From: an uncultured Chloroflexia bacterium
GTDB taxonomy: Bacteria > Chloroflexota > Anaerolineae > B4-G1 > SLSP01
NCBI GenBank assembly: GCA_963751345.1
Contig: CAVVUS010000032.1
Span: 1-64,000, forward strand
Length of the DNA: 64,000 nt
Direction: 5' to 3'
The notes beneath the pieces were generated by a model. The model was not told the origin of the DNA and searched no databases. It saw only the letters and a program-made list of their open reading frames with translations. Position numbers and translations under genes: made by a program. Below are positions 49,437-55,713 of this stretch, one piece after another. Positions within the stretch are counted from its first letter, which is position 1, and the number at the start of each line of letters is the position of its first letter.

Positions 49437-50454
49437 CGTCTCTCCTCCCACCCCTCCGGGGGCTCTTGATGGAGCCAGCAGTGCACCAGGTGCCCGGTCT
49501 CACCCTCGGCCGGCAGCAGCGTTGGCTCGATCTCACTGCATATCGGCATCACCTTCGGGCACCGCGGATGGAAACGGCAGCCCGTGGGCGGGTGCGTCAG
49601 GTTGGGCGGCTCGCCGCCCATCTTGTAGAGTTCCTCGCGCTCGTCGAGCTTGATGTTGGGCACGGACCTCAGAAGCCCGTCGGTATACGGGTGCAGCGGG
49701 TTGTCGAACACCGTCGACCACGTCCCCGATCTCGGCCATCTGGCCCGGCGTACATCACGGCGATCCGGTCCGCGATCTGGGCCACCAGCGCGATGTTGTG
49801 CGTGATCAGCAGGATCGTCAGGTTGAACTCATCGCGCAGCCGCTTGAACTCGTCGAGCAGCTTCGCCTCGACGATCACGTCTAGCGACGTGGTCGCCTCG
49901 TCGGCGACGATCAGATCGGCGTTGAGCACCAGGCCCAGGCCCACCATCACCCGCTGGCGCATCCCGCCCGAAAGTTGGTGCGGGTAGTCTCTGAGGCGGT
50001 TCTGCCGGATGCCCAGCACCTCGATCAGGGTCCGCACGCGCTCCAGCGCGGCCTGCACCGGCGTCTTCTCGTGCACCTCGATCGCCTCGACCATATGCTC
50101 GTCGACGCGCTGCACCGGGTTGAGCGACGTCAGCGGATCCTGGAAGATCATGCTCACCCTCCGCCCACGGAAATCGCGCATCTGATCCTCGTCGTAGGCC
50201 ATAATGTCCTCGCCGTCGAAGACAATCTGCCCGCCGCTGATCTCGCCGGGCGGCGCGATCATCCGCATCAACGCCTTGCCCATCGTGCTCTTGCCACAAC
50301 CGCTCTCGCCGACCAGGCCCAGGATCTCGCCTTTGAAGATGTCGAACGAGACCTCCTCGACGGCGCTCAGCGACCCCAGTCGCGTGTGATACGTGACCGA
50401 AAGATCGCGAACCTGGACGAGAACATCCTTCTCTTCCGTTGAGTCTGTCGCCAT
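49433..50454 (-). CDS. oppD: Oligopeptide ABC transporter ATPase (OppD/DppD); frameshifts near 49745 and 49715
   Basis: GESGCGKS, LSGGMRQR, ADEATTSLD, HPYT, GCRFHPRC. Confidence 0.9.
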
Positions 50455-50455
50455 C

Positions 50456-51739
50456 TCAGACCTCCGATAGGCGCGGATTGAGAATCTCTGAGAGGCTCTC
50501 ACCCAGCATACTGAAAGCAAATGTCACCAGCGTCACCATGGCGCCGGGGAACGTGATCAGCCACCACGCGCGACGCAGATAGTCCTGACCACGGGCCAGG
50601 TCGATACCCCAGTCGGGCGTGTCCGGCGGAATGCCGAAGCCCAGGAAGCTCAGGCCGGCCTCGGTCAGGATCGCGTCGGCCACGTTGACCGAGAAGATGA
50701 TCACCACCGACGGGATGACGTTCGGCAGGATAAAGTCCTTCATGATCCTGAGCGCCGTGGCACCCAGACTCCGGGCGGCCTCGACGTAGAGCTCCTCCTT
50801 GACCGCCAGCGTCTGTCCCCGCACGATGCGGTAGTACGTCGGCACATAGAGCACCGCGATCGCCACGATGATGTTGCCGATGCCCGCGCCCAGCACCGCC
50901 GCGATGGCGATGGCAAGGATCAGGCCCGGGAAGGAGTAGAGGCTGTCCATCAGCAGCGTGAGCACGCGATCCAGCGGGCCGCCGACGTAGCCGCTGATCA
51001 GACCCAACGGCACGCCCAGCACGAGCGCCGCGATCGCCGAGCTCAGGCCCACGATCAGCGCAATGCGCGTGCCCCAGATGATCCGGCTCAGGACGTCCTG
51101 GCCGATCTGGTTCGTTCCCATCACGAACCCGCGCCCTGTCGACTCGCGCAGCCCTGCCGCGATCTGCAGATCCGGGTAATTCGGGAGCAGAGGCTGGAGG
51201 TTGTCCGGCGTGGCCACGACCGCGTTGATGTCCCCCGCCTCCAACGCGCTCAGCGCCTCGTCCAGCGTGCTGTACCGCTCCGGACGAGGCTGGTACCTTA
51301 CGTTCTGACCCTCTGCGCTCGCCTGTGCATTCAGGTCGTCCAGCGCCTCCCGGAGTGCCTGGGCCGCAGCCGTCCCCAACACGTAGCCGATCCTATCGGT
51401 GCTCGCGGCTACGTCCGCCAGCGACGTCACATCCGCGTCCGTTCGCGTCACCAGCACGTAGTCGGAGGGCGCCTCACCCGGTGCCAACAGCGAGGGGCCT
51501 ACCTCGGCGCGTGGGTCATACGGCGAGAAGAGGCCGGGGAAGACCCCCACCGCGATGATGAAGAGCAGCAGCAGCGCGCTCATCAGCACGAACCACCAGT
51601 CACCACCATACCACTTCCGCGCCAGCAGTAGCCTGCGCACAAACCCAACGCGGTCCAGCTCCAATTGCCATTCAGGTACCTCGACGTCGATGTCGCGCGT
51701 GGCGTCCGTCTGCGCTCGATTGCGTAGTTGCCGTGCCAT
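50456..51739 (-). CDS. oppC: Oligopeptide ABC permease (OppC/DppC) with ~115-aa extracytoplasmic insertion
   Basis: GTNQIGQDVLSRIIWGTR, EAA motif YVEAARSLGA, LSFLGFG, PDWG. Confidence 0.9.
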   Translation of the reverse strand: MARQLRNRAQTDATRDIDVEVPEWQLELDRVGFVRRLLLARKWYGGDWWFVLMSALLLLFIIAVGVFPGLFSPYDPRAEVGPSLLAPGEAPSDYVLVTRTDADVTSLADVAASTDRIGYVLGTAAAQALREALDDLNAQASAEGQNVRYQPRPERYSTLDEALSALEAGDINAVVATPDNLQPLLPNYPDLQIAAGLRESTGRGFVMGTNQIGQDVLSRIIWGTRIALIVGLSSAIAALVLGVPLGLISGYVGGPLDRVLTLLMDSLYSFPGLILAIAIAAVLGAGIGNIIVAIAVLYVPTYYRIVRGQTLAVKEELYVEAARSLGATALRIMKDFILPNVIPSVVIIFSVNVADAILTEAGLSFLGFGIPPDTPDWGIDLARGQDYLRRAWWLITFPGAMVTLVTFAFSMLGESLSEILNPRLSEV

Positions 51740-51747
51740 ATCTCCTC

Positions 51748-52770
51748 CTAATACCGGATGCGCGGATCGACGAACGCGTACAGGATGTCGACCATAACAC
51801 TGATGAGACCCACAAAGAGCGCGAAGACTGCGATCACTGACTGCACCGCGTTATAGTCGCGCAGCTGGATCCGGGTCACCAGGTACCGTCCCATACCGGG
51901 CCACGAGAACGTGGTCTCGGTCAGCACCGCCCCTGCCAGCAGCAGCGCAAACTGCAGCCCGATCAGCGTGAGGATAGGGATGAAGGTGTTGCGCAGCGCG
52001 TGCCGGTAGACCAACCGCCGCTCGGGCAGACCTCGCGCACGGCCTGCGACGATGAAGTCCGTCTGGAGCGCCTCGATCATGTTCACGCGCGTCAAGCGAA
52101 TAAAGGGACCGGTCAAGATGAGGCCCAGCGTGACCGACGGCATGATCAGGTGAATCAGCAGCGACTTCAGTGCGGGCCAGTTCCGTCCGAGGATGGCATC
52201 GATGATGTAGAAGTTCGTGATGGAATGGAAATCTCGCAGGAGCAGCGTGTCCATTCGCCCGGCCAGGGGCAGCAGCGGAATCCGCACAGAGAAGAGGATC
52301 TGGAATAACAGCCCCATGAAGAAGACCGGAATGGCGTAGACGATGATGCTGAAAACGCGGATGCCGTAGTCCACAGGCTTCTTGCGGTGTTTCGCTGCAA
52401 AGGCTCCTCCATAGATGCCCACAATGACGGTGAAGGCCATAGCCGGCACCGTTAGCTCGATGGTGGCAGGCAGCCGTTCGCCCAACTCATCACGGATGGG
52501 CCGCTCCCCCTGGGTCAGCGCGTTCCCGAAGTCCAGGCGCACCATCCGCCAGAGAAAGTCGAAGTACTGCACCACGAGGGGTCGGTTGAGCCCCAGACGC
52601 TCCCGGATCGCTTGCGCTTGCTCCTCGCTGACCTTGGGTCCGAGCTGTGAACGGATAGGGTCTCCCGGCAGGATTCGCATGACGAAGAACACCATGCTTA
52701 CCAGGATAATGATCATGGGGATGGTGAGGAGGATCCGGGTAATGATGAAGTTACGGAATGATACGGACAT
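51748..52770 (-). CDS. oppB: Oligopeptide ABC permease (OppB/DppB)
   Basis: LPGDP, LGLNRPL, RLPATIEL, ARGLP, ETTFSWPGMG, DPRIRY. Confidence 0.93.
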   Translation of the reverse strand: MSVSFRNFIITRILLTIPMIIILVSMVFFVMRILPGDPIRSQLGPKVSEEQAQAIRERLGLNRPLVVQYFDFLWRMVRLDFGNALTQGERPIRDELGERLPATIELTVPAMAFTVIVGIYGGAFAAKHRKKPVDYGIRVFSIIVYAIPVFFMGLLFQILFSVRIPLLPLAGRMDTLLLRDFHSITNFYIIDAILGRNWPALKSLLIHLIMPSVTLGLILTGPFIRLTRVNMIEALQTDFIVAGRARGLPERRLVYRHALRNTFIPILTLIGLQFALLLAGAVLTETTFSWPGMGRYLVTRIQLRDYNAVQSVIAVFALFVGLISVMVDILYAFVDPRIRY

Positions 52771-52920
52771 AGTGAAACTCCAATCCTGAATTGCTTCCTC
52801 TGTCGCTCAACTCTGCGAAGGCTAGCGGGGACCCGAGCGTACGGGTCCCTGGTGCCTCGCTAGCCTTCGCAGGGTTGCTGGTGAAGGTAGACTGGTAGCG
52901 AATCCATTATACTCAAGAAA

Positions 52921-52951
52921 CCGGGGCGGGAGAGTAACTCTCCCGCCCCGG
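52921..52951. terminator. Perfect hairpin after oppA (terminator or mRNA-stabilising stem); second long stem at 52812-52871
   Basis: CCGGGGCGGGAGAG-TAA-CTCTCCCGCCCCGG. Confidence 0.7.
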
Positions 52952-52975
52952 GTGAGCAACTACCAAGGTCCGCGA

Positions 52976-54703
52976 CTACTGACCGCCTGTCATGTAGTTC
53001 ATGTTGAAGACGAGGTAGCGGAGTGCCGGGGCGTTGATCTCTTCGACCGTCAGACCCGAGACGCTCTGCAACCGGACCGACTCCACAGGGCCTAGCGTGC
53101 GCCAGGCGATGTCGATTTCACCGGTCTCGACAGCATTGCCCATCGTTGTAGGATCGGCGAAGTAGCGGATGATCACGTTCGGGATCATCGGCTTATCGTC
53201 ACCGAAGTAGTTGGGGTTCGCCTCGAGCACCATCTGCTCGCCCGGCGTGTAGTTCACCATGCGATACGGGCCGATCCCGTCGACCTTGTCGGGGAACTGC
53301 ACGATCTGGTCGGTCGGGAAGATGTTGGGGTTCGCCGGCACGAACGGGGCCGTCGCCGCCAACGCATCGAAGAAGCCGTACGAGTCGTTCAGCGTGAAGA
53401 CCACGGTCGACTCATCGGGTGCCTCGACACCCGCGACGTACGCCTGGACCAGGCCGGAGACCTGACCCTCAAGACCGAAACGATCCCACATCCGGACGTA
53501 GTCGGCCGAGGTGACCGGCGTGCCGTCCGCATACATCAGGTTGTCGCGCAGCGTGAACGTGTAGGTCTTGCCATCGTCGCTGACGGTGGGGAAGTCCACT
53601 GCCGCGCCGGGTACCAGCGTGGACGTGCCGGGCTCGTACCGCAGCAGCGGCACGCCGGTGTTCTTGATGATCTCCCAGTCGTGGGTCGCGTAGGCATCCT
53701 GCGGATCGAGGCTGTTCACCTCATCGGTCGTGCCGATGATGATCGTGTCGGATGTGCCCGCCGCGGGTGAAGCATCAGCCGTGAAGTTCAGGACGTTGTA
53801 GTTGAACTCGAACGGCGCGCCGATCTTGACACCCTCGACGCCATCGCGATACGTGACGTACTCGGGTTCCCAGAAGAGCGGGAGGGTGGGAACCTGCTCG
53901 GCATAGTAGTCGCCGATTTCCTGGTAGAGCGAAGCGCGCTCGTCAGGATTCGTGGAAGCCGCAGCCCGCTTGAGCAGGTCGTCCATCTTCGGATCGCAGT
54001 AGTTCACGCCGTTGTCGGGCGACTGGATACAGGACGCGAAGGGCGTCAGCCAGTTGTCGGGATCCGCGAAGTCAGGGAACCAACCCAGAATGAAGACGGG
54101 GAAGGCATCGCCGGCCACAAAGCTGTCGACGTACTCCGCCCAGTTCTGGCTCTTCAGGTTCACCGTCATCAGACCGGTTTCCTCGAGCTGCTCCTTGAGC
54201 ACCTGCATGACGTCAGCTGTCGTCGTGCCGTAGTGCTCGGGGGGATACCAGAGATCGAACGTGAACTTGTTATCGGTCGTGTAGCCCAGGTCCTCGAGGA
54301 GGCTGATCGCCATAGGCAGATCGCGGGTACCATACTTGTCCAGGAACGGCTCGGTCGCGTATGGATAGCCCGGGGGCACCATGGAGTAGGCCGGAATGTT
54401 CCGTCCTTCAAAGACACGATCGACGAGGACCTCGCGGTCGATAGCCGCCGCAAAGGCCTGCTTCAACTCGGGAGTCCACAGCGGTTGGGCACTGGCCATA
54501 GTGGGCTCAGCGGTGGGCGTCGCCTCAGCCGCTGCGCTTGTCGTCGCCGTCGGTTCCGCCGTAGCTGCCGCCATGGTCGGTTCCGACGTGGCCGCAGCCA
54601 TCGTCGGCTCCGATGTCGTGGCGGCCGGTGTGCCACACCCGGCCAGCGCGAGAGCTAACAGCACCACGGCTGTCAGCAAACTGTAGAGTGACTTACGGGA
54701 CAT
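52976..54703 (-). CDS. Family-5 ABC substrate-binding lipoprotein, circularly permuted
   Basis: Lipobox LALAGC. All SBP_bac_5 motifs are present (SLDP, SDDGKTYTFTLR, GIGPY, AAAIDR, GWFPDFADPD) but in rotated order. Confidence 0.88.
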   Translation of the reverse strand: MSRKSLYSLLTAVVLLALALAGCGTPAATTSEPTMAAATSEPTMAAATAEPTATTSAAAEATPTAEPTMASAQPLWTPELKQAFAAAIDREVLVDRVFEGRNIPAYSMVPPGYPYATEPFLDKYGTRDLPMAISLLEDLGYTTDNKFTFDLWYPPEHYGTTTADVMQVLKEQLEETGLMTVNLKSQNWAEYVDSFVAGDAFPVFILGWFPDFADPDNWLTPFASCIQSPDNGVNYCDPKMDDLLKRAAASTNPDERASLYQEIGDYYAEQVPTLPLFWEPEYVTYRDGVEGVKIGAPFEFNYNVLNFTADASPAAGTSDTIIIGTTDEVNSLDPQDAYATHDWEIIKNTGVPLLRYEPGTSTLVPGAAVDFPTVSDDGKTYTFTLRDNLMYADGTPVTSADYVRMWDRFGLEGQVSGLVQAYVAGVEAPDESTVVFTLNDSYGFFDALAATAPFVPANPNIFPTDQIVQFPDKVDGIGPYRMVNYTPGEQMVLEANPNYFGDDKPMIPNVIIRYFADPTTMGNAVETGEIDIAWRTLGPVESVRLQSVSGLTVEEINAPALRYLVFNMNYMTGGQ

Positions 54704-54999
54704 TTCTCTTCTCCTTCACTTCTTTTGGGTCCTGCACTTTCGAAATGGGTCCTGCTAATGCTGCTACCTGCTTAGGGTAAGACGCCAATCACGACCTCCT
54801 TTGTTAGCTGGTGGGAAGAGGCCATAACAAGACGGCCCAACCCCCGCCTTGGGAATGGTTGGGCCAGCGATGATCCACGTAGAGCCTCCCCCCGGCTTCT
54901 TTGCAGTATACCGCATTTCTGCACAAATGCACTCCGACCAAAGGAGTAGGTCGGAAGCCGCCCGGTGGTCTAGGGCGGATCCTGGCCGAGTGGTGAGGC

Positions 55000-55713
55000 T
55001 TACTCCTCGCTTGTCTCCCCCTTCAGACCTAGCGCGTCCACCAACACCGCCTGCGTATCATCCGGCAACACCGGTCGGAGAGGATTCCGACGCAGCCAGC
55101 GCTTGAGCTCCGCCACCCTCAGCGAGGGAACGGGAACGGTCTCTTCATCCACGTGGAGCACGACGTCGGGGTTGGTGAACAACAGGATCCCCCGCACCGG
55201 GACCTCGACGCCCTCGGGGAGGACCTTCTTCAGCCGGTCCTCTACCACTTGCTTCTCCGTCTCGGCGATGCGATGCGGCCGGCCCAACGTCTCCTGGCCG
55301 GCGAACCGCCGGAGGATACCCAGTTTCTGCTTCTGTTGCCAACGCCCATCCGCATAGGTGATGTCCCCGCCCTGTGACTTCACGGTGATCACGGTCAGCC
55401 CGCCGGGCTCCAAGAGCGCAAAGGCCACCGGAAGCTGGTACATCAGCAGTGTATAGCCGTTGTCCAGACCCTTGAGCGCATCCGGCACGCGCTTGTAGTG
55501 CGCATTCGGACCCACAAAGCGCTCGCCCAGAAAGCTTCCCATCAGCGAGATCAGGAAACCCACCCACACCAGCGCCATCGTGCCCCAAATCCACTCAGGC
55601 TTGAGGAAAATCAGGACGGTCGAGATGCCCAGGCAGATCAGTCCGGCAAACGGAGCCCGTTCCCCGATCTTCTTCCGCATCTGGATGTGTGACTCGTTGG
55701 TAATAACCTTCAT
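55000..55713 (-). CDS. Membrane-anchored hypothetical protein (2 TM + possible NERD-like domain)
   Basis: MKVITNE start after a GGGGG SD, two TMs, ALKGLDNGYTL..LEPGGL.VI..K..GG.I. Confidence 0.7.
   Translation of the reverse strand: MKVITNESHIQMRKKIGERAPFAGLICLGISTVLIFLKPEWIWGTMALVWVGFLISLMGSFLGERFVGPNAHYKRVPDALKGLDNGYTLLMYQLPVAFALLEPGGLTVITVKSQGGDITYADGRWQQKQKLGILRRFAGQETLGRPHRIAETEKQVVEDRLKKVLPEGVEVPVRGILLFTNPDVVLHVDEETVPVPSLRVAELKRWLRRNPLRPVLPDDTQAVLVDALGLKGETSEE

Follow-up and report, generated by a model that had tools for sequence, protein, structure and literature searches.

Substrate-binding proteins (SBPs) of the OppA type have two lobes with two crossovers between them, and their C-terminal tail leads back into the N-terminal lobe. 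Natural departures from such a chain order are known from another structural class: Tp0684 (TpMglB-2) of Treponema pallidum is a circularly permuted glucose-binding lipoprotein placed in 'Type Ic / Cluster Bc', and its authors, in the available part of their paper, raise membrane tethering as a possible reason for the permutation (PMC4990184). Periplasmic binding proteins have been circularly permuted in the laboratory for use in biosensors, and such constructs as well as permuted halves of ribose-binding protein are described, for instance, in the accessible portions of PMC6335823 and PMC9815098, and what is accessible of PMC8694067 mentions circular permutation only generically. For a naturally permuted protein of family 5, no description was found in the full-text literature, a survey in which most subscription journals were missing and papers were judged by titles and the beginnings of abstracts. 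Here, we report on a gene from an uncultured Chloroflexia bacterium of the class Anaerolineae that resides on a stretch of 64,000 nucleotides (contig CAVVUS010000032.1, positions 1 to 64,000), the whole of which we refer to as the window. The gene very probably encodes a genuine and functional, circularly permuted family-5 SBP (cluster C, OppA/DppA/NikA/GsiB type).

Swapped halves in a family-5 binding protein

The open reading frame (ORF) at 52976-54703 on the minus strand comprises 575 codons plus stop. Its product is recognized by the Pfam model SBP_bac_5 (PF00496) with 244 bits at a cut-off of 32.4, which places it in family 5, and profile positions 2-209 (of 368) correspond to residues 363-569 of the protein while positions 210-364 are matched upstream in the same frame. 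In the genome scan both stretches exceeded the cut-off by themselves (153 and 95.8 bits). Solved sequences give the same picture: residues 79-278 align with residues 288-484 of OppA (1b05, E 1.1e-14) and residues 318-541 with OppA 12-251 (E 1.6e-12), and none of the 60 solved sequences listed provided a collinear match across both halves. NCBIfam models match the window protein as two swapped halves, too. The succession of N-terminal lobe, C-terminal lobe and C-terminal tail that is typical of family 5 is not found in this protein.

The single segments can be followed along the polypeptide (Table 1). It begins with a hydrophobic N-terminus and the lipobox LAGC, both read from the sequence, i.e. 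with the export signal and anchor of a family-5 protein. The lipobox cysteine (Cys23) is invariant in our homologue alignment (A1) and the adjoining tether differs in length and sequence among homologues. The normally C-terminal half is made up of segment C1 (residues ~72-143, starting from the hinge helix AAAIDRE) and segment C2 (residues 144-305, the rest of the C-terminal lobe) and includes the old C-terminal tail (...FEFNYNVL). After the joint of the old termini, which is kept as F(T/G)xxAxPASGS in the clade, the normally N-terminal half (residues 318-569) includes the extra domain of the N-terminal lobe, and the protein ends with ...RYLVFNMNYMTGGQ. In the alignment with OppA, a conserved Asp in the GW..D motif falls on the motif gwcaDy; the equivalent Asp in OppA presumably contacts the peptide N-terminus. 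The original prediction, made from the letters of the DNA, had described this very order of motifs and an intact frame with a signal peptide and had expected two swapped profile matches, all of which recur in our analysis (Pfam, NCBIfam and PDB sequences, a 575-aa open frame, a lipobox in the translation). Its linker, given as ~53750-53783, is located at 53753-53788 by segment mapping. It had also named a collinear full-length alignment to a canonical SBP as the result that would speak against a permutation; no such alignment was found for the window protein, and a canonical sister protein used as a control (see below) does produce one.

Table 1. Segments of the permuted binding protein gene and neighbouring transporter genes, with positions in the window
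Feature	Position	Strand	Basis
Whole gene, circularly permuted family-5 (cluster C) SBP lipoprotein (very probable)	52976..54703	(-)	ORF and Pfam SBP_bac_5, two swapped stretches
Signal peptide and lipobox, residues 1-23 (...LALAGC)	54635..54703	(-)	read from translation
T/S/E/P/A low-complexity tether with TSEPTMAAA repeats, residues 24-72	54488..54634	(-)	translation
Normally C-terminal half, residues 73-305	53789..54487	(-)	OppA 288-484, Pfam profile 210-364, segment hidden Markov models
Junction of old termini, residues 306-317, NFTADASPAAGT	53753..53788	(-)	segment mapping
Normally N-terminal half, residues 318-569 (SDTIIIGTTDE ... RYLVFN)	52997..53752	(-)	OppA 12-251, Pfam profile 2-209
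New C-terminal tail (MNYMTGGQ region) with stop codon, located where the first hinge crossover is cut	52976..52996	(-)	translation
DppB/OppB-like permease, 340 aa	51748..52770	(-)	Pfam BPD_transp_1 and BPD_transp_1_N
DppC/OppC-like permease, 427 aa	50456..51739	(-)	Pfam BPD_transp_1 at residues 242-425 only
OppD/DppD-like ATPase gene, reading frame broken twice	49451..50520	(-)	breaks near 49700-49760
OppF/DppF-like ATPase, 343 aa	48420..49451	(-)	profile matches

The canonical counterpart of the window protein is encoded in genome G330, which belongs to the same order and to another family. It is a lipoprotein of 544 amino acids (aa) in canonical order and shares 62% identity with the N half and 64% with the C half of the window protein. 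Its gene is followed immediately downstream by that of a 340-aa DppB-like permease, which can be aligned gap-free with the window permease at 51748-52770 and is 69% identical to it. In one chain, ...APALRYICFQHQLEPSNNILVRQAMAAAIDRE..., the sister spans the site at which the window protein has its termini (C-terminus ...APALRYLVFNMNYMTGGQ, mature N-terminus ...QPLWTPELKQAFAAAIDRE), and the connector of the window protein (...GAPFEFNYNVLNFTADASPAAGTSDTIIIGTTDEVNSLD) has the sister's termini on either side (mature N-terminus ...TTIIIGTTDEVNSLD, C-terminus ...GPPFEFLYANLTLE). A cut directly after the yl.fN motif, as originally proposed, is borne out by this sister being continuous exactly there. 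When run as a control, the sister matches the GsiB, NikA and OppA models collinearly and singly (e.g. residues 59-536 with GsiB 30-504). Neither genome shows both forms: the next-best match in the genome from which the window stems (G000) is a 25% identical paralogue, and G330 contains the canonical gene only, among the matches to the query. The permuted gene probably originated from a canonical ancestor, the form of which still occupies the same operon position in related bacteria, and the simplest route would be a tandem duplication followed by in-frame fusion and loss of the outer halves. The flanking stretches 52771-52975 and 54704-55000 were searched by tblastn for remnants of a duplicated half that had since been lost, and none were found (best E 0.1, noise).

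The swapped order is conserved. When 5.8 billion proteins were searched by word index, 8000 candidates were scored and 1078 of them matched; the best 120 of these matches are 66-81% identical to the window protein, most of them covering 99-100% of the query in a single local alignment. With hidden Markov models (HMMs) built from alignment A1 for the segments C1 (72-143), C2 (144-305) and N (318-569), the order C1-C2-N was found in all 121 sequences, i.e. the homologue set and the window protein itself. Mean column identity is 76% in A1 and 63% in alignment A2. A scan of one genome per prokaryotic species uncovered 192 stretches with a relative. The best 80 were kept, and the other 112 may include canonical relatives and are hence uncounted. 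Each of the 80 kept loci shows a single collinear match to the mature protein, from residues 1-7 to 498-506, at 69-83% identity, and all are labelled Anaerolineae or Chloroflexota; carriers include Longilinea arvoryzae KOME-1, Ornatilinea apprima P3M-1 and Pelolinea submarina MO-CFX1, the last with a complete genome. Within the genus from which the window stems, 14 of 21 other genomes contain matches at E <= 1e-30, twelve of them as one open collinear match (67-79% identity), and in G316 the match is cut by the end of the contig. In G302 (C15:507231-508930, minus strand) the permuted SBP appears as two ORFs (residues 1-262 and 295-575, 84-89% identity), be it by a frameshift, a gap or a real break. 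The order seen in the window protein is that of a conserved clade in many Anaerolineae and not a one-off. Homologues with the same order had been anticipated, and the argument that misassembly is not at work gains from their presence in independent assemblies including cultured isolates and a complete genome. With the conserved clade, the recurrence and the second cut type described below, the original interpretation was incomplete rather than wrong.

An AlphaFold2 model of residues 70-575, computed with an alignment of 57 sequences, is predicted with confidence (mean predicted local distance difference test score, pLDDT, 92.9; predicted template modelling score, pTM, 0.89), with a pLDDT of 97 in the blocks covering the connector and of 69 for the last six residues. 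A Foldseek search of the PDB with this model returned alignments of only 214-270 columns with query template modelling scores (TMq) of 0.35-0.42 and a best E of 2.3e-17. VIA-align places model residues ~248-493 over residues ~1-290 of YliB, OppA, DppA, NikZ, AccA and others (Z 22.1-24.2, root mean square deviation 1.9-2.7 Å over 229-249 residues in all 50 rows shown), so that the C-terminal half of the model comes to lie on the N-terminal lobe of solved SBPs, in line with the check proposed at the outset. The canonical sister, folded by the same procedure as a control (pLDDT 95.6, pTM 0.91), gives Foldseek alignments that extend over 489-530 columns (TMq 0.72-0.88, best E 1.3e-44). Because the sister aligns over its full length, the half-length matches of the window protein reflect connectivity and not divergence. 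Secondary structure elements assigned by DSSP correspond one-to-one in cyclic order in the two models, those at 2-250 of the canonical form being found at 251-497 of the permuted one (17 elements) and those at 260-466 at 9-217 (14 elements). The predicted model is thereby bilobed and has the full complement of secondary structure of a family-5 protein.

The chain runs from the lipoprotein signal through the flexible tether into the C-terminal lobe and its tail, traverses the 12-residue connector and finishes with the N-terminal lobe. The cut falls on the first hinge crossover and separates the RYLVFN strand from the VRqAiaaAiDR helix; the new termini would thereby lie at the hinge, and the lobes would be connected by one covalent crossover instead of two. 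The membrane tether would now start at the hinge instead of the N-terminal lobe.

A second cut type and the apparent recurrence of the permuted order

Among 1.84 billion cluster representatives searched exhaustively with HMMER, 40,237 matched at E <= 1e-3, and 366 of these reached E <= 1e-30. The best 150 HMMER matches were sorted into architecture classes by means of the segment HMMs. Canonical order is present in 99 representatives as N-C1-C2, in six as N-N-C1-C2 with a split N match and in four as N-C2 with C1 missed. The order of the window protein, C1-C2-N, here termed type A, occurs in eleven representatives and in P0188, in which N is split. Another order, C2-N-C1 (type B), is found in five and in P0262, again with a split N; in P0227 a C1 motif is visible in the C-terminus. 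One representative each exhibits the arrangement N(48-249)-C1-C2-N(4-57) (P0198), a tandem double (P0259) and a nested double (P0124), and the remaining 20 are mostly fragments. The canonical protein P0123 (61% identity over aligned columns) is nearer to the window protein than the type-A protein P0125 (52%).

For tree calculation, 155 candidate ids were reduced to the 92 rows in which three segments and no more were present and every segment HMM was covered to at least 75%; P0188, P0206 and P0256 were among those dropped. Together with the two copies of P0124 and with P0198, an alignment of 95 rows and 474 columns was obtained. On the concatenated tree the type-A label calls for five changes, all of them forced by branches with values of 95 or more in the Shimodaira-Hasegawa-like approximate likelihood ratio test (SH-aLRT), and trees from the N half only and the C half only each force the same five changes. 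The lineages concerned are the clade of 10 that contains the window protein and is sister to P0123 and then to P0127, P0132 with P0146 and P0148, P0202 with P0204, P0196 with P0231, and P0173 with P0170. Uniting all 14 type-A rows in one clade in a constrained IQ-TREE search lowered the log likelihood by 1069 and was rejected by the approximately unbiased test (p-AU 1e-44). In every type-A lineage the cut falls on the same structural site, and the connector is specific to the lineage, with flanks that resemble the C-terminal tail and the mature N-terminus of the respective canonical sister, and each lineage except the truncated P0132 has its own signal peptide, lipobox or transmembrane (TM) anchor. 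The P0173 lineage comprises a second collinear member, P0392, with 82% identity and from another data source. The next 22 relatives of P0173 are 55-68% identical, with only 46-49% of the query in one alignment, and the 21 that were classified (all but P0170) are canonical throughout; two of the 22 are labelled Thermoplasmatota archaeon. A single origin of the C1-C2-N order is rejected, and at least five lineages carry it. The same swap of lobe order has probably arisen independently in several other lineages of the subfamily.

Our trees are quick LG+G4 trees calculated without mixture model or bootstraps. It could be argued that the permuted order arose only once or twice and that its scatter is due to reversions or to gene conversion by canonical paralogues. 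In favour of this it can be stated that the trees are unrooted and count changes rather than gains, the latter not being formally separable from reversions, that three of the five type-A lineages are represented by one sequence each (P0132, which is N-terminally truncated, P0196 and P0202), and that the half trees for type B force one to two changes only. A single type-A clade is rejected, however, and both halves lead to the same five placements, which argues against partial conversion. Furthermore, the connectors are not homologous between lineages and each matches the termini of its own canonical sister, and the P0173 lineage is nested among 22 relatives of which all 21 mapped are canonical. 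Gains are also the simpler reading because every solved structure seen has canonical order. Taken together, we consider an origin on one or two occasions unlikely and favour several independent gains of the C1-C2-N order.

The genome that harbors the window encodes a second permuted family-5 SBP on contig C33 (L002:1156-2898, minus strand, 580 aa), and several other family-5 genes of this genome are canonical. In the C33 protein, Pfam profile positions 2-285 correspond to residues 283-573, and residues 240-573 and 76-205 align with residues 22-350 and 370-494 of AppA (1xoc), respectively. The protein follows the type-B order C2-N-C1, in which the cut is located ~70-80 residues further into the C-terminal lobe. 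A homologue search gave 2116 matches among 8000 scored candidates, and the 120 listed, with 58-88% identity over 86-100% of the query, all have the order C2-N-C1. About 60 N-terminal residues after the signal-like start of the C33 protein look like an out-of-frame tether, and some of the homologues are named TAT-signal (twin-arginine translocation) proteins. Whereas the concatenated tree requires three changes of the type-B label, the half trees force only two and one. Several origins are accordingly less well supported for type B than for type A.

Some of the more unusual architectures deserve mention. P0259 (1202 aa) is a tandem N-C1-C2-N-C1-C2 protein. In the nested protein P0124 (1036 aa), N-C1-[N-C1-C2]-C2, one copy is inserted into the other precisely where type B is cut, and the nearest relative of either copy is the other one (SH-aLRT 100). 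Both proteins are possible intermediates of permutation by duplication. In P0198 (580 aa), and likewise in P0450 and P0459, only the first ~55 residues of the N lobe have been moved to the C-terminus, and P0198 has a TM anchor with a basic tail at its C-terminal end. A hydrophobic C-terminal stretch followed by K/R residues is shared by the permuted relatives P0177, P0198, P0206 and P0227; C-terminal membrane anchors of this kind are found in archaeal binding proteins. P0077 (807 aa, from a Chloroflexota metagenome-assembled genome) has a complete SBP_bac_3 domain (62-295) fused before a permuted family-5 SBP of the window's clade and thereby unites two different kinds of binding protein. P0146 (901 aa) contains a canonical family-5 domain (413-896) behind about 400 residues in which protein-kinase-like motifs (...HRDVKPANILFD...) and a TM segment were noticed by eye; it may be a kinase with an SBP sensor domain.

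Operon context, function and alternative explanations

Permeases and ATPases of the Opp/Dpp type are encoded together with the window protein (Table 1), as befits a family-5 SBP. Pelolinea submarina, the genome of which is complete, has all five genes unbroken and side by side; they encode products of 557, 340, 418, 334 (OppD-like) and 338 aa in this order, in which the Pfam domains to be expected are present. In the window, the OppD-like gene is interrupted by frame changes that lie within about 45 nucleotides of each other (...AVMYAG / QMAEIGDVV / TVFDNPLHPYTDGLL...). Further family-5 SBP genes that are split or contain an in-frame TGA were noted in the same genome at C11:135600-136695, C10:75054-76194 and C26:33119-34301, and as other family-5 genes in the assembly are also broken, the frame changes in the OppD-like gene are probably assembly indels. 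The DppC-like permease has ~130 extra aa (residues ~85-200) before its conserved core; they are without a Pfam match, and NCBIfam matches begin at about residue 200. On inspection by eye, an ALEAGDINAVV-like motif in this insert recalls family-3 SBPs. The long permease recurs with 425 aa in G330 (70% identical ortholog) and with 418 aa in Pelolinea, and the ortholog in G326 has 303 aa. A link between the insert and the permutation was considered and rejected since the insert is also present in G330, next to a canonical SBP.

None of the NCBIfam equivalog cut-offs is reached by the window protein (best OppA, 117 bits vs 947), and an assignment of the substrate by NCBIfam was discarded, all matches being far below the cut-offs. 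Two signature blocks, WYPPEHYGTTTADV and GWFPDF.DPD.WL, are near-invariant in the clade. As the canonical sister has close variants of both blocks, it and the permuted protein probably bind the same ligand, judging from sequence. The window protein is most likely an ordinary receptor of the adjacent Opp/Dpp-type importer, i.e. a surface-anchored protein that would close on its ligand and hand it over to the permeases of the downstream importer.

Several points weigh against the reading of the gene as that of a genuine and functional permuted SBP. Ligand binding, transport and the single-crossover hinge are all inferred, and the canonical-like packing of the lobes, as modelled, is read from a pTM of 0.89 and the order of secondary structure elements. 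The broken OppD-like gene means that this particular copy might not be functional. Among 300 other genomes of the phylum, taken as an even sample with four candidates scored per genome, none matched at E <= 1e-100, which indicates either a patchy distribution or an insensitive search; being at odds with the many named Anaerolineae carriers, this result was given no weight with regard to distribution. Support for the junction from public sequencing runs is weak: the reads gave short contigs of low depth, none fully spanning the junction, and fewer than half of the sampled words were present in any one run.

It could also be that the transport role was lost, the gene either decaying or having been recruited elsewhere, e.g. 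for signalling. The broken OppD-like gene in the window assembly would fit such a loss, as would the fusion of some family-5 domains to other modules, exemplified by P0146 with its long N-terminal extension. On the other hand, the ORF is intact and conservation is high throughout the clade, the gene has kept its place as the first one of a complete importer operon, which is intact in Pelolinea, and the canonical sister takes the same operon position. A loss of transport is accordingly very unlikely in our view, and a function as importer receptor is preferred.

A mosaic of two halves from two different SBP genes that were fused, rather than a permutation, is even harder to reconcile with the data. 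Fusions and doubled forms do exist in the family (P0077, P0124, P0259). In separate trees, however, P0123 is the nearest canonical relative of both halves (path 0.75 for N and 0.64 for C), the G330 sister is about equally identical to the two, and the halves together amount to exactly one complete set of secondary structure elements. We rate the chance of a mosaic as extremely small and retain the circular permutation. Least of all can the findings be explained by an error of assembly or gene calling that would have made a single ORF out of two partial SBP genes or out of a wrongly joined contig: indel-type breaks are present in the assembly and public contigs lack a complete span of the junction, one X2 contig covering 53627-53777 and one X3 contig, from another study, matching up to 53749, but the latter continues in frame with the permuted-type connector of a relative beside DTIII (read by eye), the same order, connector and termini recur in all 80 kept loci from independent assemblies, in all 121 sequences and in 12 genomes of the genus, which renders such an artefact practically negligible.

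Significance and comparison with known systems

What is new here are the probable several origins of the C1-C2-N order and a second large permuted family with another cut point. Classifications of SBPs and the Pfam model presume one connectivity for family 5, from which two large natural clades differ, and for annotation it is relevant that permuted proteins produce two half-domain matches and fail equivalog models. The same transporter occurs with a canonical SBP in one bacterium and with a permuted SBP in a relative, a natural experiment in which effects of hinge connectivity and tether position on SBP dynamics and docking would be directly measurable. The natural cut sites (the hinge between N and C1 and the boundary between C1 and C2), along with the doubled proteins P0259 and P0124, document routes of permutation and point to positions that are tolerated in engineered permuted biosensors. 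It is conceivable, albeit doubtful, that lobe swapping at the hinge is a recurrent and selected solution in surface-anchored family-5 SBPs where the organism lacks an outer membrane, as in Chloroflexota, Thermoplasmatota and others. If so, the tether moved to the hinge and the single crossover would alter docking geometry or the kinetics of opening and closing compared to the canonical ortholog, and family 5 would contain at least three natural topological classes (C1-C2-N, C2-N-C1 and the form with ~55 N-terminal residues moved), each of them having arisen repeatedly.

With OppA, DppA, NikA and GsiB (YliB) of E. coli and AppA of B. subtilis, the window protein shares the Pfam family. The operon is of the same type as in canonical family-5 systems, with two permeases and two oligo_HPY ATPases, and each half retains the lobe architecture of canonical SBPs (Z 22-24 for the N-terminal lobe and a sequence E of 1e-14 for the C-terminal lobe). 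Unlike these proteins, it has the C-terminal lobe first, a joint of ~12 residues between the old termini and an open first hinge crossover. What it has in common with TpMglB-2 is a natural circular permutation of an ABC-transporter (ATP-binding cassette) binding protein in a membrane-tethered lipoprotein (PMC4990184). However, as far as the available part of that paper goes, TpMglB-2 belongs to cluster B (type I) and the window protein to cluster C, and the change in TpMglB-2 is of another kind: ~70-100 residues forming three strands of the N lobe have been moved and a fourth hinge crossover was added (PMC4990184), whereas in the window protein whole lobes are swapped and one crossover is removed. 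The moved part of TpMglB-2 shows poor sequence similarity and its origin is described as unclear (PMC4990184), while both halves of the window protein are readily traced to the canonical ortholog by their 62-64% identity. Membership in the MglB-like Cluster Bc was not found: every match listed for the window protein, in sequence or in fold, is to a cluster C protein. Engineered permutants, in the portions of the literature available to us, resemble the window protein in showing that SBP folds tolerate new termini (PMC6335823, PMC9815098). They are laboratory constructs, mostly of maltose-, ribose- and glucose-binding proteins, whereas the form encoded in the window is natural, conserved and recurrent.

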